Positions 26,972 to 46,902 of a DNA stretch of 46,902 bases are shown in pieces. Numbering within the stretch: the stretch's first letter is position 1; every line of letters starts with the position of its first letter. The stretch lies in IMG/VR virus record IMGVR_UViG_3300043426_000009. The stretch is one strand, 5' to 3'. The position numbers and the translations under genes are program-made. Under the pieces are notes generated by a model. The model did no database searches, was not told the origin of the DNA, and saw nothing but the letters and a program-made list of their open reading frames with translations. Source of the DNA: a virus.

Positions 26972-27501
26972 TATTCTTGAATTTGAAAGTTGTTTTTTAA
27001 TATCCAATCATAATCAACTTCGGTTGGATTTCGATCTATTGCATACAGTCCAATTGTTGTGTCTTTATGATGTTGTAATTTAACAAAATCAACATCAATT
27101 TTCCTTGATGCTATTATTGCAATTTGTTTGAAATCTGAATTTTTGGCACGTTTAAATTTTTCGGCGATTAATGTTGGAATTGTGAATTGTGATTGCGTTT
27201 TTTCAACAACATCAATATTTAAAAAATTTGTTTGTTTAAAGTCGCCTTGCGGCAATATTTCAAAAATACATTTTCCGTGTTCATATCCAATTTGTTTTCC
27301 TTGTTTTTCGGTTTGTTTATATCCGATGTCATTCAAATATTGATAAGCGTTTTTTAATGATTCTTTCGGAATTTGAACATCAATGTCATTGATTTCATTG
27401 TATTTCAATAAACCAATTTCATACAATAAATAACTTCCGATAATCTCAGCATTGAAATATTTTTTCAAATTTTGAATTATTTCATTTTCTTGTTTTTCCA
27501 T
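26971..27501 (-). CDS. Nucleotidyltransferase-fold (Pol-beta-like) protein (176 aa)
   Basis: Contains the pattern hG[GS]-x(n)-D-h-D-h (IIGSYLL...NDIDVQI) and a later acidic strand (NIDVVE). Confidence 0.5.
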   Translation of the reverse strand: MEKQENEIIQNLKKYFNAEIIGSYLLYEIGLLKYNEINDIDVQIPKESLKNAYQYLNDIGYKQTEKQGKQIGYEHGKCIFEILPQGDFKQTNFLNIDVVEKTQSQFTIPTLIAEKFKRAKNSDFKQIAIIASRKIDVDFVKLQHHKDTTIGLYAIDRNPTEVDYDWILKNNFQIQE

Positions 27502-35263: not shown

Positions 35264-35296
35264 ATTTCCACGTTGTGCGAGATGCTACGAGAGAAC

Positions 35297-35986
35297 TCAA
35301 AACAACGACGTTTGAGATTGTTCATTTGTAATTCTTTTGGTTAAAACTGAATAATATTTTTTATCAATTTCGCTTCCTAAAAAATTTCTTTTTTCTTTTA
35401 TACAAGCAATTGCAGTTGTACCACTTCCCATAAATGGGTCAAAAATCAAATCGTTTTCTTTACTTGAATTTACAACCAAAGTGCGAATAATGTTTAATGG
35501 CTTAACAGTTGGGTGTTCAAAATCGCTTTTTGAATTGTTTTGCAAAAAATATTTCTTCTTACTTGCGTAATCGCCACCTAAATAAGCTCCTTTACCTCTC
35601 ATAAAAATTATGTATTCAGTATCGCTTAAATATTTATTATTGGTTGTAGGTATTGGATTTAGCTTGTGGTAGCAAAGTATATCTGTATTCATATTATTTT
35701 CTTTTCCCCAAAGAAGTATTTGTAAAACTTGGTCTTTTGAGCAAAAAAAGTAACAATTAAATATTTTCAAAACTCTTTTACATTCGTCTAAAACAATATT
35801 TTCAAAACCATCACTTAATGATTTAACGCCTTTGTGATAATCTCGTTGTTCAGTCCCAAAACAACCGCCACCGCCACCACTAACAATTTCATACGGTGGA
35901 TCTGCAATTACTAAATCAACAGAATTGTCGGGCAATCTTTTTAAGGTGTTTAAACAATCCTCATTGTATATTTTATTTAATTCCAT
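35297..35986 (-). CDS. DNA methyltransferase, DPPY type (N6-adenine or N4-cytosine, beta-class order) (229 aa)
   Basis: Motif IV VIADPPYEI lies near the N-terminus and motif I DPFMGSGTT near the C-terminus. Composition is atypical, and the gene has its own promoter copy and a long leader. Confidence 0.8.
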   Translation of the reverse strand: MELNKIYNEDCLNTLKRLPDNSVDLVIADPPYEIVSGGGGGCFGTEQRDYHKGVKSLSDGFENIVLDECKRVLKIFNCYFFCSKDQVLQILLWGKENNMNTDILCYHKLNPIPTTNNKYLSDTEYIIFMRGKGAYLGGDYASKKKYFLQNNSKSDFEHPTVKPLNIIRTLVVNSSKENDLIFDPFMGSGTTAIACIKEKRNFLGSEIDKKYYSVLTKRITNEQSQTSLF

Positions 35987-36168
35987 TTATATAAAATTAT
36001 TAGTAAATAAAAGCACCATCGCACAACAGCCGTTTTGCAAAAGCGGGGTTTCGGTGTTTAATTCAAGTTTTATGCTATTATCAATCATTTGTGCTATATT
36101 TAAAGTTTAGTGATTTTAATCCCCCGCCTTCGCAAAGCGGGCAGACCGTTTTAAAGTTTTTTACTTCG
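35987..36168 (-). promoter_or_regulatory. Long structured 5' leader of the DPPY methyltransferase gene
   Basis: About 180 nt lie between the promoter and the ATG. Hairpin CCCGC-9 nt-GCGGG spans 36123-36141 and the near-palindrome CCGTTTTGCAAAAGCGG spans 36030-36046. An alternative 6-bp GC pairing (36043-36048 with 36122-36127) is mutually exclusive with both. Confidence 0.4.
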
Positions 36169-36213
36169 CAAATGTAAATAAAAAAATGTATTATAAAAAC
36201 ATTTTTTAATTTA
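36168..36213 (-). promoter_or_regulatory. Promoter/operator cassette, copy 3 of the exact 25-mer
   Basis: GCAAATGTAAATAAAAAAATGTATT at 36168-36192. TACATTTG -7 box (36169-36176). Inverted repeat AAAAATGT-N9-ACATTTTT at 36182-36206. The -33 position reads TTTT. Confidence 0.65.
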
Positions 36214-36226
36214 TTTTAAAAATATT

Positions 36227-36610
36227 TTAAAACGTCAAATCATCGTGTTCTTCTTCTTTTGTCGTTGATTGTGGATTTGTTGTTGTTTGTTGTTTGTTTT
36301 GATATTCATCAACCGCACTTGTTGATTTTGGCGCTTGACCAACTTTTTCCAATTTCCAACCACGCAATGAATTGAAATATTTTTTTTCGCCTTGCGGATT
36401 GATCCATTCACGACCGTTGATGTTGATTGCAATTTTTACAACATCATCAAGTTTGTAATTATTTAATAAATCGCATTTGTCTTGCGTGAATTCTATCAAT
36501 ATTTTTTGCGGATATTGTTCATCCGTTTCAATTGCAACGTCTCTTTTTTTGAATGATGCCGAAATTTCTTTTACATCATCAATCAATATTAGTTTTCCTA
36601 TTAAGTCCAT
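36227..36610 (-). CDS. DUF3127-type OB-fold protein, probable single-stranded DNA-binding protein (127 aa)
   Basis: The pattern ETDEQYPQKILIEFTQDKCDLL...INGREW...YFNSLRGWKLEKV is typical of Bacteroidota DUF3127. The acidic C-terminal tip EEEHDDLTF resembles the SSB tail. Confidence 0.65.
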   Translation of the reverse strand: MDLIGKLILIDDVKEISASFKKRDVAIETDEQYPQKILIEFTQDKCDLLNNYKLDDVVKIAININGREWINPQGEKKYFNSLRGWKLEKVGQAPKSTSAVDEYQNKQQTTTNPQSTTKEEEHDDLTF

Positions 36611-36614
36611 TTTT

Positions 36615-36806
36615 TTAAGTTTCTTTTATTGAACAATATCCAACTTGATACGCTTGATATTTACAACCTGGTTGTTTTTCCATATCAAGATATTGTTGAA
36701 ATGTCATTGTTTTTTTCTTTATAATTCCGTTTTGAAATCTGAAAACATCCACCATTGTTTCCGGCGGTGTTTTAACATACAATGTTTCTTTTTGCTTTTG
36801 AGTCAA
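36615..36806 (-). CDS. Small hypothetical protein (46-63 aa; start uncertain)
   Basis: The track start at 36920 lies inside the NinG-like gene. A TTG at 36806 lies just after that gene's stop, and an ATG lies at 36755. Confidence 0.35.
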   Translation of the reverse strand: MTQKQKETLYVKTPPETMVDVFRFQNGIIKKKTMTFQQYLDMEKQPGCKYQAYQVGYCSIKET

Positions 36807-36807
36807 T

Positions 36808-37278
36808 TTACTTGCGGCCACCGTGAATTTTTGAAAGTTGATATTGTTTTGATAATTCCGGATTGTTTTCAAGTTCCAAATTATGTTCCAAACAACACCC
36901 GGCAAAATAACGCACATCAATTGTCAAAGGAATATTATTTTCACGTGCCCAATCATCGGCAAAACCAATTCGGCCCATTGTGTGTTCAATTGTTGTTGAA
37001 TTGCGATTGCAACCATCAATGAAACAAATTTTGTTTTCTGGTTTTGACAAAAATTCAATTCTTAGAACTGTATATTTTGCATTGATGATTTTTTGTTTTT
37101 GCGAAATTTTGTTGATTGGTTTTCTTGGCTTATTATTCCAAACAATCGGTTTTTTTTCTTTTGGTTTTTCGCATTTCTTTTGACATTCAATTGAACAATA
37201 TTTGTCGGTTGTTTTGAACAATTTGAATTCTTTGCGGCATTCCTGATTTTTACAATTTTTGTGCGTTTTTAGTTTCAT
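36808..37278 (-). CDS. NinG/Rap-like recombination endonuclease (156 aa)
   Basis: An N-terminal zinc motif (CKNQECRKEF...DKYCSIECQKKC) and a C-terminal Cys/His cluster (CFIDGC...EH...CCLEHN) match lambda NinG-family proteins. Confidence 0.6.
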   Translation of the reverse strand: MKLKTHKNCKNQECRKEFKLFKTTDKYCSIECQKKCEKPKEKKPIVWNNKPRKPINKISQKQKIINAKYTVLRIEFLSKPENKICFIDGCNRNSTTIEHTMGRIGFADDWARENNIPLTIDVRYFAGCCLEHNLELENNPELSKQYQLSKIHGGRK

Positions 37279-37285
37279 AATATTT

Positions 37286-37301
37286 GGGCGGTTTCCCGCC
37301 C
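37286..37301. other. GC-rich hairpin GGGCGG-tttc-CCGCCC, second copy of the repeated element
   Basis: The same flanks as 22415-22432 (ATTTGGGCGG...CCGCCCGTTTTAA). It lies between the stop at 37310 and the ATG at 37278. Confidence 0.6.
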
Positions 37302-37309
37302 GTTTTAAA

Positions 37310-37930
37310 TTATTTCAACTTTGTTTCATCTTTTTCCGTTCCTGGTTCTTTGAACAAATCCGGATTTTCTTTTTTCTTCAATTCGGTTTCGATGTCAAGT
37401 TGCAATTTTTTTGATTGAAAACGATATGCGTAAACTTCTTTTTTGATTTTTTCGCAAATTTCTTGAACTTCATTTTCGTAACCTAAAACATCTTTTCCGA
37501 ATGTGATTTTGGAAACGGCCATTCCGATTGATCCACCTTTTGGAAGTTTCAATGAACCGGTAACCATTACGCCGTAAGTTTCGCCATCGCCTAAAAATGT
37601 AATCCCGTTTACATTGCAACGTGAAGTCGCTTCTTTGTGTCCGTCCATTGCCATTTTTAAAACATCCAAATCTTTTTTCGTGTGTTCACGTGAAAAATCC
37701 CATCCGTCTAAAATTCCGATTCTTTGGGCCATATATGGGGCCAATTCATCAAGTGATGCTTGCAAGTCCGGATGTGGTTGAACTTCGCCGATTTTTGTCA
37801 ATTGCCCGGCATCATTTCCGGATTCGTGATGCGTAACGTCCGCACCATCTTTCGTGATTTTAACTTTGATTAAATCGAAATGTTGATATTCCAATTGTCT
37901 CAATTTTTGTTCTTCGTGTGATTTTGCCAT
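37310..37930 (-). CDS. Hypothetical protein (206 aa)
   Basis: ATG at 37930. No motif recognised. Confidence 0.5.
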   Translation of the reverse strand: MAKSHEEQKLRQLEYQHFDLIKVKITKDGADVTHHESGNDAGQLTKIGEVQPHPDLQASLDELAPYMAQRIGILDGWDFSREHTKKDLDVLKMAMDGHKEATSRCNVNGITFLGDGETYGVMVTGSLKLPKGGSIGMAVSKITFGKDVLGYENEVQEICEKIKKEVYAYRFQSKKLQLDIETELKKKENPDLFKEPGTEKDETKLK

Positions 37931-37955
37931 TTTTAGCGATTTTTAAATTAAACAA

Positions 37956-38240
37956 TTATTTATTTTTATGATGATTTATGCAATCATTTTTGTTTTCAAA
38001 TATTAATTCGTGGCCGGTCAATTTTGTTTCAACATTGAGTGTTTTTGCTAATGATACAAATGAACTTTCATTTCCTTTGATAATCATAAAACCGGCACAT
38101 TGTAATTTTTTGTTTTTATGACAAACAAACGAATGTTGATTTAATATTTCAATCATTCGATTTTCGCCCAACCAACCTTTCAAACTATCTTTTCTAAACG
38201 GACAATCTTTGCACGGTTTTTTACAATTTGGCAAATTCAT
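37956..38240 (-). CDS. Cys-rich, putative zinc-binding small protein (94 aa)
   Basis: ATG at 38240 forms an ATGA overlap. Contains CKKPCKDCPF...CHKN...CAG. Confidence 0.5.
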   Translation of the reverse strand: MNLPNCKKPCKDCPFRKDSLKGWLGENRMIEILNQHSFVCHKNKKLQCAGFMIIKGNESSFVSLAKTLNVETKLTGHELIFENKNDCINHHKNK

Positions 38241-38614
38241 TTTGATTGTGCTTTTATCGACATATCAAGTTGATATTGCATTGCATCACGCACGTTGATT
38301 ATTGCATTAATTCTTTGATCTAATGATGTGATGAATTTTTTGCATTCACTTGGTGTCGTTGCAATATAATATCCTTTTCCGGTCGCAATCAAATTATAAA
38401 TTAAATTATTAATTCTAATGTGATTTATTATTTTTCGCAATCGTGCCGGATCAATTTTATAGTTTGCACCTTTCATCAGCTTTATAATTTCCGTTGATGA
38501 AATTTGATTTGATTCGCCACGTTTGGTGTTGAATCCTTTTATAATCGCCGGAAGAAGTGTTTTTTCTTCATAATCGGTCAATTCGTGTGTTTGTTCTTCA
38601 AATCCGTCAATCAT
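38237..38614 (-). CDS. Hypothetical protein, possibly winged-helix-like (125 aa)
   Basis: ATG at 38614 lies 1 nt after the upstream stop (38616-38618). The track start at 38719 lies inside the upstream ORF. Confidence 0.5.
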   Translation of the reverse strand: MIDGFEEQTHELTDYEEKTLLPAIIKGFNTKRGESNQISSTEIIKLMKGANYKIDPARLRKIINHIRINNLIYNLIATGKGYYIATTPSECKKFITSLDQRINAIINVRDAMQYQLDMSIKAQSK

Positions 38615-38615
38615 A

Positions 38616-38903
38616 TCAAAAATCAATATAGTTAAACAATTCATCTTTTGTGAAATTGAATTTTGCATTTTCACCGTTATTTCTGAATAAAAATATTTCG
38701 TGAATTTCAAAATTTGCAATTACAATTTTGTGATTTTCGATTTTCATATTAACACATAATTCAACTGTTAAATGATAAACGTTTTCGTTATCTTCTTTGA
38801 AATAAGAATTCAAATTTACGAACTGAGTTTGATTGTTTTCAAAACTCACTTTATCTGGTAGGAATTCCAGATTTTCAAGAATTTTTGATTTTGTATTTTC
38901 CAC
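38616..38903 (-). CDS. Orphan AT-rich ORF behind a duplicated promoter (95 aa from GTG)
   Basis: The track start at 38996 lies upstream of and inside the promoter copy. A conserved ATCGTG gives a GTG at 38903, about 15 nt after the predicted transcription start. The ORF is CG-depleted relative to its neighbours. Confidence 0.45.
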   Translation of the reverse strand: MENTKSKILENLEFLPDKVSFENNQTQFVNLNSYFKEDNENVYHLTVELCVNMKIENHKIVIANFEIHEIFLFRNNGENAKFNFTKDELFNYIDF

Positions 38904-38950
38904 GATAAAAAGTTTTTGTTTTGGCAAATGTAAATAAAAAAATGTATTTA
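38901..38950 (-). promoter_or_regulatory. Promoter/operator cassette, copy 2 of the exact 25-mer (upstream half truncated)
   Basis: GCAAATGTAAATAAAAAAATGTATT at 38924-38948. TACATTTG -7 box (38925-38932). The downstream leader is near-identical to the 43.2 kb copy. The upstream half is replaced by the 3' end of the RusA-like gene. Confidence 0.55.
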
Positions 38951-38958
38951 CGATAAAT

Positions 38959-39498
38959 TTAAAATAAAGATTGTTGTGTTTGCTCCAGGCGTCCAATAAT
39001 TTTCAATTCAATTGCGGGATAACCTTTTTTATATTTCATATTGATTTCATCAACAAATCGAACCGTGTCATCTTTTAAAACATTGATTGTTTTAATTTCA
39101 TTGTCATATTTTTCGGCATTGATAATTTGTTTTGATGATGGTGTTTTCATTAAGTCAAGCAAAATTTTAGTCCAAAAATAAACTTTATTGTCAAGATCAA
39201 AATTGTCGGTCGGGAAATGATATGTGATTTCGATTTTGCATTTTTCAATTTTTGGAATTTCTTGAATGTGTTGCATCATCCATTCTTTAGCGAAATTGAC
39301 AACTTTTGATTTTATAGCCCAATGTGTACCATCATAAAAAATATTTGCGGTCAAATAATTAACATCTTTTTCAATCAATTTTCCTTTTGAATCAAGTTTG
39401 ATTTTTTTGTTAATCTTTTCATATTTAGTCGGCGGATCACGGAACATTTCGTGAAATAAAATATCATCCATTTGATTTGAATTTAAAATTTTTGTCAT
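38959..39498 (-). CDS. RusA-like Holliday junction resolvase (179 aa)
   Basis: NFDLDNKVYFWTKILLDLM and NVLKDD match the RusA D-x-DN...K...D...DD pattern. An alternative ATG at 39471 gives an 8-nt overlap with the upstream gene. Confidence 0.5.
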   Translation of the reverse strand: MTKILNSNQMDDILFHEMFRDPPTKYEKINKKIKLDSKGKLIEKDVNYLTANIFYDGTHWAIKSKVVNFAKEWMMQHIQEIPKIEKCKIEITYHFPTDNFDLDNKVYFWTKILLDLMKTPSSKQIINAEKYDNEIKTINVLKDDTVRFVDEINMKYKKGYPAIELKIIGRLEQTQQSLF

Positions 39499-40504
39499 TT
39501 CTTAATTCAAGAAACTTTCTTTTTGTGATGACATTTTGTGCGATGTTCATCGTTGAATCACGTGTGATTTCTTTATATTTTTCTTCACGTTTGTTTTCAC
39601 GCACAACCGGGATGCAACTTTTCATCAAGACTGAAATTGATTCACGAATTTGTTTTTTTTCCAATGAACGTGCCGCATCAAACATCGCATCATCAATTTC
39701 ATCAAAATCGGTTGTTTTTAAATATTCGTTTTCCAACATAAATTTTTTCACAAATGACCAAGCGACTTCGCCCATATTTTGCAAATAATCATCGGATTCT
39801 ATCAACAAATCATTCATAAATGCAACAACATCAATTTTTTCTTCGACTTTTGGTTTTTCAAGTTTTTTCCAATTTTCTTGAATTTCTTGTTGTGTCAATT
39901 TTCGTGTTGATTTAATTTGTCGGAATGAACCAGTTTCAAGAAAATCGAAATGTTCAAAATATACCATTTGCATAAATCTATCAGCAACACGGCCGTCATA
40001 ATTTTTTGCGATTTCTTCAATTGTCAAATTCGTTGTTCCAAACGTGCGAAATCCTTTCGACACCCACCATTCATAACGTTTTAATAATACGAATCGAATG
40101 ACATTCATTTTGTTGTTGTAATGCGAAAAAAATTTGTCATCGCCTTCATCGCCTATGTCATCAATAAATAAATTTTTTACTTTTATGAATTCCAAAAGTT
40201 CTGCTTCGCCTTTTTCTTTGAAAACATTGACCAATTCTTTTGCACTTGTTTTTTTGAAAATATATTGGTTTCTTATTCTGAAATGTCGATGATGAACAAC
40301 ATCGAAAAAAAATGATTTACCGACACCATATTTTTTGTTGAATGCAATTATCCCACGATTATAATCAACTTCGGGATCATTATTGAAATTATAAATCACA
40401 TCCAAACAAAATGTAAATGTTTTTTCAATTGTTGGCGATGTAATGAATTTTTTAACAAAAAACATTTCAGCTTCATTAATAAATCTTTTATACGAATCTT
40501 TCAT
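39464..40504 (-). CDS. DnaC/IstB-like AAA+ ATPase, probable helicase loader (346 aa)
   Basis: Walker A YGVGKS and Walker B LFIDDIGDE, followed by KRY...GTTNL...GRVADRF as in DnaC-family loaders. Confidence 0.75.
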   Translation of the reverse strand: MKDSYKRFINEAEMFFVKKFITSPTIEKTFTFCLDVIYNFNNDPEVDYNRGIIAFNKKYGVGKSFFFDVVHHRHFRIRNQYIFKKTSAKELVNVFKEKGEAELLEFIKVKNLFIDDIGDEGDDKFFSHYNNKMNVIRFVLLKRYEWWVSKGFRTFGTTNLTIEEIAKNYDGRVADRFMQMVYFEHFDFLETGSFRQIKSTRKLTQQEIQENWKKLEKPKVEEKIDVVAFMNDLLIESDDYLQNMGEVAWSFVKKFMLENEYLKTTDFDEIDDAMFDAARSLEKKQIRESISVLMKSCIPVVRENKREEKYKEITRDSTMNIAQNVITKRKFLELRNDKNFKFKSNG

Positions 40505-40505
40505 T

Positions 40506-41300
40506 TTATTTCAAATTTGGTTCATCGGACGGTGCAAATACAAAATTATTTGATCCGGTTGTTAATGTTGAATTTTGAATTATATCGGTTGATTCAACCA
40601 AATATGAATCCATTTTATTTCCAAACAATGTTTCTGGCCGGATGTATTTTTTCATTTTTTCATCATTTGACCATTTTATTATTGCAGCATCAATGACTTT
40701 TTTAAAATCATCAATTTTGAATCCTTCTTTTATTCTGGCTTTTATTGGTGTTAAATTTCCGTTTGTCAATTTAAAACCTTGGCCACCTCTTTTTTCATTC
40801 AAGTATTTAATCACATCATCTGGAATCGTTGGTAAATCAATTTCTTCAAACAATGTCGGTTCCGATTCTTGGAACAATGATATTTCTTTATTATCATTTT
40901 TATTATTATTTGATTTATTATTATTTGTTTGAACTATTTCTTTTTCTTGTTTTGAATTTGTTTGAATCCCAGTATTTAAAAATATTAAAATCTTGTTTTC
41001 AACAACTTTGAAATGTAGTTTTGCGGGAATTCCTTTCAACTTAGTTTCAACATATCCGACATCATTCAATATTTTTAAACATCGTTTTTGTGCGTGATAA
41101 TTCAATGATGTTGATGATTCTATGTTTTCCGATGTGTTATAAAAATAACCGTCATCATCAAGTTCATTTCTTGTTTCAAAATAAGAATGTTTGTCAATTA
41201 AATCGGCCAACAAAACGGCTGGTTCTATTCCGATATTTTTTGCAATTTCTTTGTTGACTATCCAAAACGCACTTTGTCCAAGTATTTTTTGTAAAATCAT
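40506..41300 (-). CDS. Replication initiator-like protein with a Phg_2220_C-type C-terminal domain (264 aa)
   Basis: An N-terminal wHTH-like region, an N-rich linker, and the C-terminal YLNEKRG...FKLTNGNLTPIKARIKEGFKIDDFKKVIDAAIIKW...YIRPETLFGNKMDSYL. ATG at 41300; the track start at 41303 is TTG. Confidence 0.6.
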   Translation of the reverse strand: MILQKILGQSAFWIVNKEIAKNIGIEPAVLLADLIDKHSYFETRNELDDDGYFYNTSENIESSTSLNYHAQKRCLKILNDVGYVETKLKGIPAKLHFKVVENKILIFLNTGIQTNSKQEKEIVQTNNNKSNNNKNDNKEISLFQESEPTLFEEIDLPTIPDDVIKYLNEKRGGQGFKLTNGNLTPIKARIKEGFKIDDFKKVIDAAIIKWSNDEKMKKYIRPETLFGNKMDSYLVESTDIIQNSTLTTGSNNFVFAPSDEPNLK

Positions 41301-41303
41301 CAA

Positions 41304-42074
41304 TTATTTATTTATAAGTTCAATCGCTAATTTAACACGATTTTCAAGAAACATTTTGTCTTCAACCGGAACTTCAAAACGAATGACATTGATGTTTTGA
41401 ATTCCAGATTCTTTATAAATATATGGCAACTCATCTTCTTTTGCACGACCAACTAACCAAAACGGTTCCGCAAGTTGACTGTTATACAATTTGATTTGTT
41501 CCAATTCTTCATAATATGGCATAAACACAATCAATTCGGCATAACGTGCTTTTAATATTGATGCGTTACTCACTAATTGCCAATAGTATTTTTCGCCCTC
41601 TTTTGATTGTTTTCGGATTGATTGTATTATTTCATTTCCGTTGATTGTTTTCTTCTTAGAAACGTTCAAACCGTCAAAATCATACAAATCTTTAACCAAG
41701 TTGTAAAATGCTTTTCGTGTCAATGGACATTTTATGTCCGTGATTGTATCAACTTTTTTGTCAACTTCAATTTTTCCGTCCGGCGTTCCAACCCATTCCG
41801 GAAATTTCGGGTGTTCAAATGTTACATCGGATTGAAATTGATATTTAAAACCCAATGAATCGTGAACAATTTTTTCGCAAAGTTTGCCCCACGAAAACGC
41901 CATTACTTCAACACTGTTTTCAAGTCGTTGTTTAAAAAATCTTTCCATTCTGCATTCTTCAACGTATGTGAAAAATGGTGCGCCTGGTTCGCCTTTGCTT
42001 CTTCCGTTTGATGTCAATGCGACAATATCGCTTGATGTGCATCTTCCAATTCTAATGTTTGATAAATTTCCCAC
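41304..42074 (-). CDS. YqaJ/lambda-Exo-like PD-(D/E)xK recombination exonuclease (256 aa)
   Basis: Motifs GTPDG, ITDIKCP and YYWQLVSNA. The start at 42074 is GTG. Confidence 0.7.
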   Translation of the reverse strand: MGNLSNIRIGRCTSSDIVALTSNGRSKGEPGAPFFTYVEECRMERFFKQRLENSVEVMAFSWGKLCEKIVHDSLGFKYQFQSDVTFEHPKFPEWVGTPDGKIEVDKKVDTITDIKCPLTRKAFYNLVKDLYDFDGLNVSKKKTINGNEIIQSIRKQSKEGEKYYWQLVSNASILKARYAELIVFMPYYEELEQIKLYNSQLAEPFWLVGRAKEDELPYIYKESGIQNINVIRFEVPVEDKMFLENRVKLAIELINK

Positions 42075-42087
42075 GAGTTTAATGTTT

Positions 42088-42663
42088 TTATAAGTTTCTT
42101 AAAAATTTTAATGTTTTATCATACGATGTGATTTCTTTGTTTTCGATGATTCTTTTGATGTGTTCAAAATCATCGGCCGGAATCAATGTTTCTTTTTCCG
42201 AAAACAATTTGTCAAGTTCTTTTTCTTTGGCTTCATCATCTTGAATGATTAACGGTTTCACACTCCAAATATCCGATTTAAAAGCATTAGTTGAATTCTT
42301 TTGTTTTCCCAAATATTCAATTCTTAACGGTGTGCCGGCAACTATTTTTCCGGAATTCATAGCACTTTGTAATGATGCAACTAATCGTTTTGAACCATTT
42401 CGGAATGTTTTCAATTCGCCGGTTTCTTTTTGTTCTAAAAATATGATGCACGGAAGTTCGATTGTTTCGCCAGTTTGTTCATCGGTATAACTTGAACTTT
42501 TAATGTCTTGGAAGAAACACAATTTTGTTTCGCCCTCTTTTTCCGGCGTCCAATATTCGCTGGTTAAATCAATTGGCAAAATCTTTGCACCTTGCAAATT
42601 CGGCAATTCTTCAAGTAAATCATAAGATTGAATTTCCGATGATGTTTTTTTTACATTTTCCAT
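42088..42663 (-). CDS. Hypothetical protein adjacent to the exonuclease, candidate recombination partner (191 aa)
   Basis: ATG at 42663. It occupies the position normally held by a single-strand annealing protein. No SSAP family motif was recognised. Confidence 0.35.
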   Translation of the reverse strand: MENVKKTSSEIQSYDLLEELPNLQGAKILPIDLTSEYWTPEKEGETKLCFFQDIKSSSYTDEQTGETIELPCIIFLEQKETGELKTFRNGSKRLVASLQSAMNSGKIVAGTPLRIEYLGKQKNSTNAFKSDIWSVKPLIIQDDEAKEKELDKLFSEKETLIPADDFEHIKRIIENKEITSYDKTLKFLRNL

Positions 42664-42687
42664 TTTAATAATTTTTTAAGATTGTTT

Positions 42688-42774
42688 TTATAATTCCGTG
42701 GCCAAAATATAAAACGGCCAACACGATCCACACGATGCAAAAAATATCAAATTTTGAATATTTTTTTGATTCAT
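42688..42774 (-). CDS. Possible 28-aa hydrophobic peptide coupled to the HTH gene
   Basis: ATG at 42774 forms a TAATG junction with the HTH stop codon. Translates as MNQKNIQNLIFFASCGSCWPFYILATEL. It is below the ORF track threshold. Confidence 0.25.
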   Translation of the reverse strand: MNQKNIQNLIFFASCGSCWPFYILATEL

Positions 42775-43028
42775 TATTTTTCATTTGAAACAAATTCGTT
42801 CAATTTACAATTTCCGATTTCCATCAACATTTGAAGTCTTTGAACAACATTTGGAACTTTGCCGCTTTTCCAATCCGTGAACAATTGCGGCGTAACGCCC
42901 AATTTTTCCGCAAGCAATTTTCTTGACATTTGCGGATGAACCGTTGGATTTGCTTTGTTCCATTTTTCAATGATAACATCAACATCAATAATTGTTTTCA
43001 CTTCTTTTTTTTCTTTAATTTTCGACAT
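42774..43028 (-). CDS. XRE-family helix-turn-helix transcriptional regulator (84 aa)
   Basis: HTH motif MSRKLLAEKLGVTPQLFTDWKSGK. ATG at 43028; the track start at 43073 is TTG. Confidence 0.75.
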   Translation of the reverse strand: MSKIKEKKEVKTIIDVDVIIEKWNKANPTVHPQMSRKLLAEKLGVTPQLFTDWKSGKVPNVVQRLQMLMEIGNCKLNEFVSNEK

Positions 43029-43050
43029 AATTTTTGATTTTAAATAATTA

Positions 43051-43212
43051 TTAATTGTTTTTACTATAGTCAATTTCTAAACTTGACAATGGTTTGTCAA
43101 AATTTGGGTCTTTGCGATCCACAAATTTTGTTTCTTTTTTCATTGATGAAATTTCAACTATTTTTGGAAATCCATCGGCTCTTGGCGGGTTTAATTCTGC
43201 AATTGTTTTCAC
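43051..43212 (-). CDS. Unannotated small ORF, first gene after the early promoter (53 aa from GTG)
   Basis: The GTG at 43212 lies in a conserved ATCGTG shared with the 38.9 kb cassette. Translates as MKTIAELNPPRADGFPKIVEISSMKKETKFVDRKDPNFDKPLSSLEIDYSKNN with TAA at 43051-43053. Confidence 0.35.
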   Translation of the reverse strand: MKTIAELNPPRADGFPKIVEISSMKKETKFVDRKDPNFDKPLSSLEIDYSKNN

Positions 43213-43275
43213 GATAAAATGTTTTTTGTTTCTGCAAATGTAAATAAAAAAATGTATTACGCAAACATTTTTTTA
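43210..43275 (-). promoter_or_regulatory. Early promoter/operator cassette, copy 1 of the exact 25-mer
   Basis: GCAAATGTAAATAAAAAAATGTATT at 43234-43258. TACATTTG -7 box (43235-43242) and TTTG -33 element (43262-43265) with a 19-nt spacer. A perfect 10-bp inverted repeat AAAAAAATGT-N9-ACATTTTTTT spans 43246-43274. Confidence 0.7.
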
Positions 43276-43288
43276 TTTTTTTAATCAC

Positions 43289-43317
43289 AAAAAAAAACGC
43301 CATTCTTTCAAATGACG
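43289..43317 (-). terminator. Intrinsic terminator closing the late/lysis transcription unit
   Basis: Minus-strand RNA reads CGUCAUU-ugaaag-AAUGGCG, with one G:U pair that exists only on the minus strand, followed by U9. Confidence 0.75.
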
Positions 43318-43365
43318 GTTAAAAAACTTTTTTATAGACTCGTGAAAATCTTTTGCAAATATAAA

Positions 43366-43935
43366 TTATTTATTTAAAAACGGAATTTTTGTCCGTGTGA
43401 TGTGTAAATAAATTGATAATGCAAGTAAAATTGACAATATAATTATGATGATCCACAAATTGAAAATTGATGTTGTTTTTTCTTTTATTGTGTTTTTATA
43501 ATTTTTTTCAATTTCATTTTTTTCATTCTGCAGCAACTCAAAATCTTTGTATAATGCAATGAAACTTTTTTCTTTTTCTTCGATTGTTTTATTCAATTCG
43601 TTTTCGGTTGTGTGAATCATCACTTCGCCGTTTCCGTTGATTTCGATTTCATTTTGAATTTGACCATTTTTTTTGGTGTTCATTTTGAATGGTTCAAATT
43701 TTCTTGTTATCGAATCGAATTTTGGTTTGTAAACAACAACGGTTTCTTTTTTGGTTGATGATTCATTTTCAGTTGATTTTTTTTCATTATCAACTTTCAA
43801 TTCTTCTTTTTGTTTGACATCAACATTCAATTCTTTGTTTTCGGTCGTTTTTTCATCGGTTTGTGATGTTTTTTTCTTTGAAGCGCATCCAATTATCAAA
43901 ATTGAAATAATCGCCGTTAAAATAAGTTTTTTCAT
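43366..43935 (-). CDS. Unimolecular-spanin-like protein: lipoprotein signal plus C-terminal TM anchor (189 aa)
   Basis: ATG at 43935 gives MKKLILTAIISILIIGC with lipobox IIGC. The C-terminal helix is IFNLWIIIIILSILLALSIYLHI. It is the last gene of the lysis cassette. The track start at 43974 is GTG. Confidence 0.55.
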   Translation of the reverse strand: MKKLILTAIISILIIGCASKKKTSQTDEKTTENKELNVDVKQKEELKVDNEKKSTENESSTKKETVVVYKPKFDSITRKFEPFKMNTKKNGQIQNEIEINGNGEVMIHTTENELNKTIEEKEKSFIALYKDFELLQNEKNEIEKNYKNTIKEKTTSIFNLWIIIIILSILLALSIYLHITRTKIPFLNK

Positions 43936-43939
43936 TTTT

Positions 43940-44467
43940 TTAATTTTCATTAGTTGATATAAATCCGGAATCACTCACATTTATAACACGGATGTTTTCC
44001 GGTTGTGATATTTTCCATTTTGTTCTTGATATTGAATTGCATCGTTTTTTTTCAATTCGTGTGATGCAAACCATATTTGATTGATTTCCGCCCAATACGT
44101 GATAACACGTTTTGTCTTCGCCAACATAAATTCCAACGTGGCCGCCGCCGTTTCTTTTGAATGTTAAAACATCGCCAAGCATTGCGACTTTTTGTTTGGT
44201 TCCAAATTTTGACCAATTCAACGCCCACAATGATTCTTTTGCGGTCAAACCAGTTTCAATATTTGCTTTTTTACATACATACGCAATGAACAATCCGCAC
44301 CAAGCGATTTCATCATTTGTGTATATTTTTTCAATTCCAAGTTCTTTGGCCCATTTCATAATGGTTTCGGAATTTTTAACGCCCACAATTTCTTTTGTGC
44401 CAATTAAATTTCTGGCTTGAATCAATATTTGCGGCGATGGTTCTTTTTTTAAATAGTCGTAATTCAT
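43940..44467 (-). CDS. Endolysin, NlpC/P60-CHAP-like peptidase (TIGR02594-like) (175 aa)
   Basis: The catalytic Cys context is EIAWCGLFIAYV and the His context is GGGHVGIYVGED. It lies between the holin and spanin-like genes. Confidence 0.7.
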   Translation of the reverse strand: MNYDYLKKEPSPQILIQARNLIGTKEIVGVKNSETIMKWAKELGIEKIYTNDEIAWCGLFIAYVCKKANIETGLTAKESLWALNWSKFGTKQKVAMLGDVLTFKRNGGGHVGIYVGEDKTCYHVLGGNQSNMVCITRIEKKRCNSISRTKWKISQPENIRVINVSDSGFISTNEN

Positions 44468-44468
44468 T

Positions 44469-45122
44469 TTATTCAGATTTTGGATTTACAATTTCTTCAT
44501 CAACAACTTCGGTTTCTTCGATTTTTTCATTTGGTTCCGATTCCAATATTTCAAATGATTTGTCAATTTTATCAACAATTCTTTTTTCAAACAAATTCAA
44601 AATGTTATCGAAAAATTTGAAAAGTCTTGGTTTATATCCATATCGTTTCAAATGATTTTCGCCGATTGAATGAACTTCAAAACCGCAAGCCAATAACCAA
44701 ACTGAACCTTGAAACGCAATAAATATTTTATACAAAAATGAAAGATCAATAATTTCAACCATCAATGATGTAACACCTAAAAGAAACGACATCAACAACA
44801 CGCCAAGAAGTTTCCACAATGTGCGATATAATTTATATGATTTGACATACGGTTTTTTTGGATCACGGAATTTCATCAAACTTTCGTGTCGTGCAACTTG
44901 CAATCCCGTATGTAAATCGGCTAATAAAAAAATCACATACATTAAAGTTCCAACGGCGAAAATCACAATCGGAACAATGATATGTTTCAAATCGGTTCCT
45001 TCCATTAATTTTTTCAAATAAAACGTTGTGCCACCACTTAATGCAAATGAAATAATGGCCAAACTTCCTTTTTTGAAAGTTGCCATTTTGTATAATGCTG
45101 CAAATGCTACTTTGAAAACCAT
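44469..45122 (-). CDS. Holin, Phage_holin_4_1-like (217 aa)
   Basis: Four hydrophobic helices. The motifs LADLHTG (D-x-x-TG) and FEVHSIGEN (E-x-x-SI-x-EN) are typical of this holin family. An alternative ATG lies at 45086. Confidence 0.65.
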   Translation of the reverse strand: MVFKVAFAALYKMATFKKGSLAIISFALSGGTTFYLKKLMEGTDLKHIIVPIVIFAVGTLMYVIFLLADLHTGLQVARHESLMKFRDPKKPYVKSYKLYRTLWKLLGVLLMSFLLGVTSLMVEIIDLSFLYKIFIAFQGSVWLLACGFEVHSIGENHLKRYGYKPRLFKFFDNILNLFEKRIVDKIDKSFEILESEPNEKIEETEVVDEEIVNPKSE

Positions 45123-45538
45123 CTTATTAAATTAATTAAAGAAATTAATAAAATGCAAGTCAAAATGATTGGTTGCAACATTAACAAATAATTTTCAGGC
45201 GTGAACTGAAAAACTAATGCGATTATTGATATAAAAAAAACAAAACTCAATAACACACTAACAATTTTTGTGTCCAAACACGATGTGTAACGAAATGATT
45301 TGAAAACAAAAAACAATGAAAAAATAAAAAGTTCAACACTACAGAACAACGGAAAATAAAATTGTTTGTAATCTTTTGAACTCACATAATCTGGTAAAAA
45401 AAACGATACGGCTTCAAACAAACAAACAACAAAAATGACTAATGCCATCATTGTTGTTAATAGGTTCATTTTGTTTTTTTTGATTTCGTTGATTTTATAA
45501 ATCAACTTTCCTAAATAATCATCCGGGATTCTTGGCAT
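45107..45538 (-). CDS. Polytopic membrane protein upstream of the holin (143 aa)
   Basis: ATG at 45538. Four hydrophobic helices. It could be an antiholin, a second holin or an exclusion protein. Confidence 0.5.
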   Translation of the reverse strand: MPRIPDDYLGKLIYKINEIKKNKMNLLTTMMALVIFVVCLFEAVSFFLPDYVSSKDYKQFYFPLFCSVELFIFSLFFVFKSFRYTSCLDTKIVSVLLSFVFFISIIALVFQFTPENYLLMLQPIILTCILLISLINLIRWFSK

Positions 45539-45554
45539 AATTTTAATTTTTAAG

Positions 45555-46511
45555 TTAAATAAAATTTCGTTTTAAATTGTTATCAAATTTATCTTCAAAC
45601 ACCAAATTTAAACGTGCTTTTCTGGTTTTCACGCCGTATGTGGTCCCATCATTCGATGATAATTTTACGCCAAATTTAACATAATTATATGAATGATTGT
45701 TTAAATTGTAATCGTTCAAATAAATATCGTTTGCAAACAACATAAAATCAAGTATTTCGTAAGTTACACAACTTGGAATATAATTTGTTTGAAATTTATA
45801 TTCGTTCTTTTGTGTCATTGAAATTTGTCGTTTATGATAATCACGACCAATCAAATTATCTTCTTCAAATGTTGGTTCACGTCGACCGAAAAAGCCCGGA
45901 ACTCGCATTGAATGCTTCCATCCCGTGCCCTTAAATTCAACATTTTCTTTTTCTAATCGGCCATTCATCACAACATCAATTCTTGCGGTTTTATCGGCGA
46001 TTGATGAACTGTATTGTTTCAACGTGAACGTGATTGAATTTGTTTCAACCAAAACACCTGCAATGTTTTGTCGTTTGATGATTTTATAATTGCCTTCGCC
46101 AAGTGTGGCCAATACTCTTTTCCATTCAATTTTATATCCTTTTAAATTCACATTTGTTGGAAAATATCCAAATCCGAAAAATTGGCCATATGTTCCACTA
46201 TTCAATGGATATTCCGTGGCGTTTTCGTGTCGATACAAAACAAAATCGCACGTTTCCGATGTCAATTGTCGTTGATGATAAAAAGCCGAATAATCGTTTT
46301 TAAAATCATTTGAAGAATTTGCATCAGCCAAAACAATATGTGTATAACAACATTCTTTAAAAACAATGTCCGGGTCTTCGCCTGGTTCCGGAATATTCAC
46401 ACCAATTGCATAACTCAAAGTTCTTTCCTTATATTGGCAATTTGTCGCAATATTACACATAAACGATTCGGTGTTTACATATACTATTTCAAGTAGTTCT
46501 TGATTATTCAT
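45555..46511 (-). CDS. Hypothetical protein (318 aa)
   Basis: ATG at 46511 forms an ATGA overlap with the NTase-like gene. No motif recognised. Confidence 0.5.
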   Translation of the reverse strand: MNNQELLEIVYVNTESFMCNIATNCQYKERTLSYAIGVNIPEPGEDPDIVFKECCYTHIVLADANSSNDFKNDYSAFYHQRQLTSETCDFVLYRHENATEYPLNSGTYGQFFGFGYFPTNVNLKGYKIEWKRVLATLGEGNYKIIKRQNIAGVLVETNSITFTLKQYSSSIADKTARIDVVMNGRLEKENVEFKGTGWKHSMRVPGFFGRREPTFEEDNLIGRDYHKRQISMTQKNEYKFQTNYIPSCVTYEILDFMLFANDIYLNDYNLNNHSYNYVKFGVKLSSNDGTTYGVKTRKARLNLVFEDKFDNNLKRNFI

Positions 46512-46900
46512 AATTTCAATCTTTTTATTTTAGTTTCAAATATTTTTTTTAATTCCGGATCATTCGTGTTGTTAAAAATAAATTCATAATGATTAATCAA
46601 TGATTTTTTTGTTTCATATTTCACATTATCAATTTGAATAAATTCCGGAAGTTCATTTTCAATAAATATGTCAATTTGACATTTTTCTTTTTTTATGAAT
46701 GCACGTTTGCCGCTTTTACTTAATATTGATTTTGTTTCAAATTCATTTATTTTTCCGAATTTTTCCAAACCATTTAATGACAAAACAACAATGTCAATGT
46801 CATTCGTTGTTTTCTTGGTGCCGTGAATAATCTCAGCAACACCACCAACGAAAATGATGTTTTCGTTGGTTGTTGCAATTTCTTTTATTAACTTGAACAT
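46508..46900 (-). CDS. Minimal nucleotidyltransferase-fold protein (130 aa), spanning the circular junction
   Basis: IIFVGGVAEIIHG...NDIDIVV and a later QIDIFIE match the Pol-beta NTase pattern. The ATG at 46900 lies inside the 127-bp repeat, and the stop of the fibre gene lies 10 nt downstream of this start when read across the junction. Confidence 0.5.
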   Translation of the reverse strand: MFKLIKEIATTNENIIFVGGVAEIIHGTKKTTNDIDIVVLSLNGLEKFGKINEFETKSILSKSGKRAFIKKEKCQIDIFIENELPEFIQIDNVKYETKKSLINHYEFIFNNTNDPELKKIFETKIKRLKL

Positions 46901-46902
46901 TG
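46776..46902. repeat. Terminal direct repeat, exact copy of 1..127
   Basis: Identical 127-mer at both window ends. Confidence 0.95.

Follow-up and report, generated by a model that had tools for sequence, protein, structure and literature searches.

The virus record IMGVR_UViG_3300043426_000009 of IMG/VR, a stretch of 46,902 bases (called the window throughout, at its full length), is a complete Flavobacterium psychrophilum phage of the FpV9 group. This article deals with a small gene on its minus strand (38616-38903), here named fam95, and with the non-coding segment that separates it from the RusA-like Holliday-junction resolvase gene lying before it. A first-pass annotation had described this gene as a moron-like insertion, that is, an orphan recently acquired together with a promoter or captured by one. 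The comparisons reported below favour another account, which we hold to be probably correct: fam95 would be a resident of its slot, the resolvase gene in front of it would have been swapped in the FpV9 lineage, and a shortened copy of the early promoter-leader cassette that the phage itself carries would have been placed at the joint, where it would act as an internal promoter. The elements concerned are the following, all on the minus strand:

38959-39498, minus: RusA-like Holliday-junction resolvase (phrog_4632, E 1e-77), stop TAA at 38961-38959
38904-38958, minus: spacer of 55 nucleotides (nt) from the RusA-like stop to the fam95 start, with a truncated promoter-leader cassette
38924-38948, minus: 25-nt promoter core with the direct repeat TACATTT-N7-TACATTT, present in three exact copies
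38932-38925, minus: predicted Bacteroidota sigma-A -7 box TACATTTG, from a motif scan, fitting TAnnTTTG/TAHHTTTG
38897-38904, minus: CGTGGAAA leader box containing the fam95 GTG start, at the 3' edge of the cassette
38616-38903, minus: fam95 coding sequence, GTG start at 38903, 95 amino acids (aa), phrog_13145
38237-38614, minus: g125, 125 aa, phrog_2113, function unknown, ATG at 38614
43206-43258, minus: early-operon promoter-leader cassette, the closest copy over the leader, before a GTG-started open reading frame (ORF) of 53 aa
36153-36192, minus: third promoter copy, its leader interrupted after AAAACG by a methyltransferase insertion

The fam95 slot in related phages

With g125 as the probe, 25 loci were collected from IMG/VR, and a metagenome scan added L030 and L031. 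The order replication gene (rep), DnaC-like ATPase, resolvase, slot and g125 is common to all five lineage sets, which read as follows from the resolvase onwards:

L004 and L031: RuvC-like resolvase (phrog_1770); a 95-aa fam95 member (48% identity) 1 nt after the resolvase stop, with its own stop 1 nt before the g125 ATG
L005 and L015: RuvC-like resolvase; a shorter homologue of 83 aa (hhalign 95%), with gaps of 2-7 nt or a 4-nt overlap
L006 and L007: RuvC-like resolvase; a shorter homologue of 82 aa (hhalign 96%), with gaps of 2-7 nt or a 4-nt overlap
tant8-1 and L009: RuvC-like resolvase; a promoter, then unrelated ORFs of 140/149 aa and 59 aa; the fam95 family is absent (complete genomes)
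FpV9 group and L030: RusA-like resolvase; fam95, preceded by the 55-nt spacer that contains the promoter copy

A homologue of fam95 is found at the same slot, adjoining the same downstream gene, in L004/L031, L005/L015 and L006/L007, and no TAHHTTTG box precedes it in any of these three pairs, a synteny that speaks against the recent insertion proposed at first. The RusA-like type of resolvase occurs only in the FpV9 lineage and L030; the RuvC-like type is found in L004, L005/L015, L006/L007, L009 and tant8-1. The resolvases of these relatives start with an IDPGxxGG motif, that of L004 (L004:5469-5999) matches phrog_1770, and tblastn found no similarity between the RusA-like gene and gp09 of tant8-1. 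These comparisons point firmly to a non-orthologous replacement of the Holliday-junction resolvase in the FpV9 group. Since fam95 occupies the same slot in three of the four lineages and the RusA-like gene is restricted to FpV9, the simplest reading is that fam95, together with its tight junction to g125, is old and that the resolvase is the swapped part.

The lineages compared are far apart. In the ATPase tree the four of them form an unresolved star at about 45-53% identity, and g125 shows 66-74% identity in L004, L005, L006 and tant8-1. At closer range, fam95 is present in all 29 genomes of the FpV9 group as well as in L030, with no presence/absence polymorphism, while g125 is widespread without it. 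fam95 is conserved beside g125 where it is present, yet dispensable in some lineages. A search for further related loci returned nothing from viral contigs for fam95, P0008, P0017, RusA and alignment A4, and nothing for g125 and P0037 in genome contigs or for P0008 in metagenome contigs.

The promoter-leader cassette at the joint

The core of the cassette is identical over 25 nt at 36168-36192, 38924-38948 and 43234-43258. These three exact matches compare with none in 100 shuffles, three mismatches being allowed, and a wider repeat of 40 nt around the core keeps 80-90% identity between the copies. Within the direct repeat, the second TACATTT unit alone forms the -7 box. Identity of this extent goes beyond the needs of sigma-A and suggests a site for a common regulator. 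In both F. johnsoniae (PMC6847099) and F. psychrophilum (PMC9723704), the -7 box TAnnTTTG/TAHHTTTG occupies positions -12 to -5, with the transcription start site (TSS) 4-5 nt downstream. The TACATTTG at 38932-38925 is preceded by an A/T run and the sequence is A/T-rich at -18 and -28; from the position of the box, a TSS is predicted at about 38920, with a leader of 17 nt. At -33 the fam95 copy has no TTTG (TATC or TTAT stands there in the window, AGTG in L030), and in the 43.2-kb copy a TTTG is spaced from the -7 box by 19 nt. This -33 element is barely visible or only weakly conserved in F. johnsoniae promoters (PMC6847099). Also absent from the fam95 copy is a long A/T-rich upstream element common to five other promoters, because the RusA-like stop (38961-38959) lies just upstream.

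The leader is repeated along with the promoter. Through CGTG(G)AAA, GTG included, the fam95 copy matches the 43.2-kb copy at 90.6% over 53 nt, and the leader up to and including CGTGGAAA is also common to the 36.2-kb copy in the form that this has in Fpv5 and L030. The first-pass annotation had correctly seen the general design of this joint, namely a promoter copy placed directly after the RusA-like stop, a leader copied with it, an upstream promoter half lost at the RusA 3' end, and an ORF that ends 1 nt before the next ATG (TGA at 38618-38616, then ATG at 38614). An A stands at -3 of the fam95 GTG, and the predicted mRNA is unstructured over its first 50 nt, with a minimum free energy of -0.8 kcal/mol; an A at -3 and an unstructured leader favour initiation in Flavobacterium, which belongs to a phylum without Shine-Dalgarno sequences (PMC6847099, PMC9723704).

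The composite made of a -7 box followed within 30 nt by CGTG(G)AAA is found three times in Fpv5 and in L030, and once each in tant8-1, L009, L015 and L007; four diverged phage lineages have it, and shuffles expect 0.0-0.1 occurrences. On its own the CGTGGAAA 8-mer shows no genome-wide enrichment, being enriched only in combination with the -7 box. CGTG(G)AAA sites lie at 38897-38904 and 43206-43213 in the window and at 27104-27111 in Fpv5 (L002), and elsewhere at about 6233 in L015, 5969 in L007, 3378 in L010 and 3379 in L009. In three cases the GTG within this motif starts the first gene, and elsewhere it opens a mini-ORF of 3-6 codons; the motif might be a start context, an operator or an RNA element. 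In L004, the homologue of the early 53-aa ORF begins with ATG and lies behind a TACATTTG box of its own.

How constrained is the cassette? Selection was gauged by comparing the window with L030, the flanks of which are about 96% identical. Not one substitution separates the two over the 46 nt from 38949 to 38904. Synonymous divergence (dS) is 0.13 in the RusA-like gene and 0.17 in g125, within a flanking range of 0.13-0.37, so about 6-9 changes would be expected in these 46 nt if they were neutral.

As to its origin, the fam95 copy is near-identical to the early cassette of the same phage, has no upstream half and ends at the start codon. This codon is GTG in the cassette carriers (the window, L030 and Fpv5); of the seven homologues read as DNA, the other five (L004, L005, L006, L007 and L015) have ATG. 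We infer that part of the cassette was duplicated and joined through the short homology TGGAAA, and regard the copy at the joint as most likely derived. The idea that the gene was captured by a promoter cassette gains support from this junction, made exactly at the start codon. The cassette brings to fam95 a -7 box, an A/T-rich spacer, an unstructured, A-rich leader of 17 nt and the CGTGGAAA box. It would provide an internal sigma-A promoter for the gene, and, as a translation-initiation region, it would replace the stop/start abutment with the resolvase gene that had been lost. It could re-start or boost the distal early genes (fam95, g125 and the genes for DUF6283, g206, NinG-like and DUF3127 SSB-like proteins), and its control would be shared with the other two exact copies of the core. 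Judged by its sequence, the cassette copy is probably both an internal promoter and a translation start.

Several observations weigh against this account. Promoter activity and the TSS at fam95 are predictions from sequence, a literature search having found no phage-infection transcriptome, and the copy has neither the -33 TTTG nor the upstream A/T element. The complete tant8-1-type genomes have no fam95, and unrelated ORFs fill their slot, which means that the slot turns over on a deeper timescale. Sequence and profile searches found no relative of fam95 in Pfam, NCBIfam or PDB, and Foldseek returned nothing from PDB and only fam95 itself from BFVD. Finally, in tant8-1 and L009 the resolvase gene is directly followed by a promoter that has a CGTGGAAAA box, so the fam95 promoter could be ancestral rather than newly duplicated, and the tree leaves the order of the four lineages unresolved.

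An ancestral promoter behind the resolvase would have been kept in FpV9 and tant8-1 and lost in L004, L015 and L007, the identity of the FpV9 copies being due to gene conversion or to selection on a shared operator. The TATTTTTG box and CGTGGAAAA of tant8-1 and L009 stand at the same position as the fam95 promoter and form the sole such composite in the tant8-1 genome, and a perfect identity over 25 nt is more than sigma-A recognition needs. However, the likeness of the tant8-1 promoter is limited to the box and the 8-mer and extends neither to the core nor to the spacing (3 versus 20 nt); three losses would be needed, each with a precise re-abutment of resolvase and fam95; and the missing upstream half of the FpV9 copy is what a partial duplication would leave. 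We therefore regard this explanation as rather unlikely.

The copy might also be an inert scar of the resolvase swap, with fam95 expressed only by read-through from the 43.2-kb early promoter. No terminator was found upstream of the fam95 promoter copy to separate it from the preceding operon, so that a promoter is not strictly needed there; the relatives manage without one, and the parts missing at -33 and further upstream would suit a relic. Set against this are the 46 nt unchanged since the divergence from L030, next to coding sequence where dS reaches up to 0.57, and the fact that the -7 box, the A/T richness around -18 and -28, the leader of 17 nt and the -3 A are all intact. The -33 element, lacking in the copy, is weak in Flavobacterium, and the leader would still be needed as a translation start once the abutment with the resolvase was lost. 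A scar is in our judgement improbable.

The fam95 protein and its neighbours

Contrary to what was first assumed, fam95 is not an orphan. A phmmer search of 1.84 billion representatives (E<=1e-3, clusters at 50% identity) gave 20 clusters of 91-108 aa, most of which align from residue 1 of the 95-aa form; a word-indexed search gave just two close relatives. phrog_13145, to which no function is assigned, matches every one of the 21 aligned members, with a best E of 2e-63, and the fam95 of the window matches this profile over residues 1-95 with E 5e-60. One member, the prophage copy WP_412464213.1, is annotated in the chromosome of Flavobacterium mekongense, and others are on phage-sized contigs of 37-52 kb. 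The family has a conserved N-terminal helix motif and the C-terminal motif F-x-F-T-K-x-E-L-x-D-Y-I-D-F (alignment A2), its exact Y-I-D-F/Y end being kept by 15 of the 21 members; these motifs and a confident fold supersede the earlier remark that no motif was recognized. Its members are acidic, with net charges of -1 to -9 (-3 or below in 20 of the 21) and an isoelectric point (pI) of 4.4-5.3 in 20 of the 21.

The GTG start of the 95-aa form is backed by the N-termini of the family (P0003: MENIK, 96 aa), by JGI's own 95-aa call and by the cassette. The ORF of the window is identical in sequence to that of Fpv5, and the “hypothetical protein” gp25 recorded by RefSeq for Fpv5 to Fpv11 and for FPSV is the same protein. 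The RefSeq model of gp25 is 126 aa long (38616-38996), begins at a TTG inside the RusA-like gene and reads through the promoter, while that of g125 (gp26 of Fpv5) is 160 aa long and also begins at a TTG (38237-38719). These models overlap their neighbours by 38 and 104 nt, respectively, and the N-termini of the homologues support 95 and 125 aa.

AlphaFold2, run with the alignment, gave a model with a predicted local distance difference test score (pLDDT) of 93.5 and a predicted template modelling score (pTM) of 0.82. In it, three long antiparallel strands and then a short one lie between an N-terminal and a C-terminal helix, and on this model fam95 is a small, acidic and well-folded alpha/beta protein. 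An exhaustive VIA-align comparison with 48,161 chains found no structural neighbour at Z 5, the best Z of 4.4 being at noise level (an anti-Cas9 protein in the top row), and the ESM Atlas returned unnamed clusters only. Mimicry of the C-terminal tail of SSB by the D-Y-I-D-F end was considered and rejected, as this end is modelled as ordered and packed (pLDDT of about 91, helix 86-92). Our best guess is that fam95 would be a protein-binding accessory factor and would serve either the module for recombination and replication or a DNA-transaction protein of the host.

Compared with L030, fam95 is 87.8% identical, with no indel or stop, and g125 has no amino-acid change. The divergence is uneven: codons 1-58 have a dS of 0.57 and a non-synonymous divergence (dN) of 0.14, and codons 59-95 a flank-like dS of 0.12 with a dN of 0.022, the dN/dS ratio being about 0.2-0.25 in both parts. 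Positive selection was considered as a cause and rejected, since the excess is limited to codons 1-58, where dS itself is 0.57 and dN/dS is 0.25. The pattern is that of a recombination patch, a more distant allele under purifying selection, and the left edge of the patch is the cassette.

A strong, regulated promoter, a small acidic protein and a second gene behind it could also be seen as an anti-defence operon of the acr-aca type, in which fam95 would be the inhibitor and g125 its DNA-binding regulator. The size and acidity of the family, its patchy presence among relatives, the lack of a known fold neighbour and the noise-level anti-Cas9 row just mentioned would suit such an operon, as would a basic helix and a wing-like pattern in g125, for which there are weak winged-helix leads only (Atlas score 0.84). 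The g125 profile, however, finds nothing significant in PDB or Pfam, helix-turn-helix (HTH) and Aca families included; g125 is common without fam95; the relatives have no promoter before the pair; fam95 lies in the middle of a recombination module; and its dN/dS of 0.25 does not point to an arms race, with the recombination patch accounting for the excess divergence. An anti-defence role of fam95 is possible but unsupported, and we give the acr-aca arrangement very little chance.

A bolder proposal combines two parts. fam95 would be a small acidic inhibitor or adaptor with a new fold, directed at a DNA-transaction protein of host or phage (e.g., a nuclease or a defence component), and the 25-nt core (TACATTT-N7-TACATTTG), the leader and CGTGGAAA would together be a portable, co-regulated cassette of promoter and translation start, which Flavobacterium phages would employ at once as an operator-controlled regulon element and as a favoured recombination joint at which genes are swapped or added. 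That both parts are true seems improbable to us.

Around this locus, the genome has the following further genes:

41304-42074, minus: YqaJ-like exonuclease
40506-41303, minus: replication initiator (Phg_2220_C)
39464-40504, minus: DnaC-like ATPase
37956-38240, minus: DUF6283 protein
37310-37930, minus: g206, a 206-aa protein
36808-37278, minus: NinG-like protein of 156 aa
36227-36610, minus: DUF3127 SSB-like protein

Every credible gene of the window is on the minus strand, and searches for tRNA genes and Rfam families had no match in it. Positions 1-127 are repeated exactly at 46776-46902, and this terminal direct repeat of 127 base pairs (bp) indicates a complete genome, either circularly assembled or terminally redundant. 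The segment 38237-39498 matches 29 database genomes, those of the FpV9 group, at 99.4-99.5%. Fpv5 (NC_031921) is 98.7% identical to the window over 36147-46530, and outside this range the differences between the two form mosaic blocks. The DUF3127 protein has an acidic SSB-like tail, D-D-L-T-F, which is D-D-L-P-F in L004 and L015; this fits a hub role of the SSB type. The 31-nt gap between g206 and the NinG-like gene contains a G+C-rich hairpin of 7 bp (37285-37302), with a T-run on the non-coding strand only. In the early region, 5' of the YqaJ-like exonuclease gene, a 191-aa gene (42088-42663) is 75% identical to its L030 counterpart between flanks of about 96%, and makes up a second allelic patch.

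Composition, variable parts and known systems

The composition of fam95 was put forward at first as a sign of foreign origin, and the checks set beforehand (GC content, CpG and codon usage) do not bear this out. The gene is indeed AT-richer than its neighbours, with 24.3% GC versus 27.8% in the RusA-like gene and 32.0% in g125, but this is only the 3.6th percentile of 288-nt windows, about 20 other stretches being equally low. The low value stems from codon position 2, i.e., from amino-acid content: GC at this position (GC2) is 0.146, and GC at the third (GC3) is 0.219 versus 0.250 and 0.254 in the neighbours. The claimed depletion in CG dinucleotides comes down to a low raw count (6, the 9th percentile), for the observed/expected ratio is 1.42 (30th percentile) and exceeds the 1.34 of the RusA-like gene. 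For each gene, synonymous choices were then scored under the codon usage of all the remaining genome and compared with 2000 simulations. fam95 has z=-1.33 (p=0.10) and ranks 12th of 64, and the positive control, the methyltransferase gene at 35297-35986, has z=-2.80 (p=0.004), so the test is able to detect a real import. The composition of fam95 is not foreign to the surrounding genome.

A moron in the strict sense, that is, a foreign orphan recently inserted with its own promoter, can hardly be upheld: the low GC, the promoter copy directly upstream, a slot that is variable at depth (other ORFs in tant8-1 and L009) and the absence of the family from several complete relatives would agree with it, but promoter-less homologues occupy the same slot in three diverged lineages, no presence/absence polymorphism is seen across the 29 FpV9-group genomes and L030, CpG and codon usage are ordinary, no terminator-like minus-strand site was found near 38600 and the stop lies 1 nt from the next ATG just as in L004, and the promoter is the phage's own cassette, not a foreign one.

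The genome does contain a genuine promoter-associated import of moron-like type. Directly behind the third promoter copy, an insertion of 872 bp (35275-36146), absent from Fpv5 and L030, encodes a 229-aa DNA methyltransferase of the adenine/N4 type (ORF 35297-35986, minus strand; phrog_67, E 3e-53). It splits the leader of this copy after AAAACG, the CGTGGAAATATG remainder standing at 35272-35261, and its CpG observed/expected ratio is 1.06.

The supposed foreign orphan is in this way a conserved module gene, and the parts that truly vary are the swapped resolvase, the inserted methyltransferase and the allelic patch, all with boundaries at the 3' edge of one repeated promoter-leader unit. Two over-extended RefSeq gene models are corrected, and the phage group concerned is one that serves phage therapy in aquaculture. 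With a confident model and no structural neighbour, fam95 is a reasonable target for work on structure and function. If the unit is active, it would offer a compact, testable model for the single-step rewiring of transcription and translation starts by phages whose hosts have no Shine-Dalgarno sequences, and a ready-made expression element for Flavobacterium genetics.

Three known systems invite comparison. Morons of lambdoid phages were reportedly described by Juhala et al. (J Mol Biol 299:27) and by Hendrix et al., both in 2000. fam95 resembles them as a small accessory gene inside a conserved module, with a promoter of its own (a predicted one here) and a GC content below that of its neighbours. 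Unlike them, it has no terminator and no foreign codon usage, and its promoter is a duplicate of the phage's own; moreover, its flanking genes are not adjacent in the relatives, where the gene is in place in three lineages and other genes take its place in one. The second system is the nin region of lambdoid phages, in which small accessory ORFs (ninB/Orf, ninG/Rap, rusA-like and ninH) lie between the replication genes and the late regulator. The region studied here is alike in its replication initiator, helicase loader, resolvase, NinG-like and SSB-like genes, in its tightly packed small ORFs and in their patchy distribution. It differs in host phylum, in promoter type and in its translation without Shine-Dalgarno sequences, and no nin protein was found to resemble fam95 in sequence or fold.

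The third comparison is with the joints between modules in mosaic phages, where internal or secondary promoters and “boundary/linker” sequences lie. The modular theory is said to go back to Botstein in 1980, and the 2001 work of Clark et al. on HK620 reportedly belongs here too. The cassette is likewise a conserved, non-coding unit repeated at joints. Three exchange boundaries coincide with its 3' edge, namely the fam95 start, the methyltransferase insertion and the left edge of the divergent fam95 patch, and from these three cases only, it may be that the cassette promotes recombination. What sets it apart from such linkers is its content, for it comprises a full (predicted) Bacteroidota promoter, a leader and a start codon, built around an invariant core of 25 nt.

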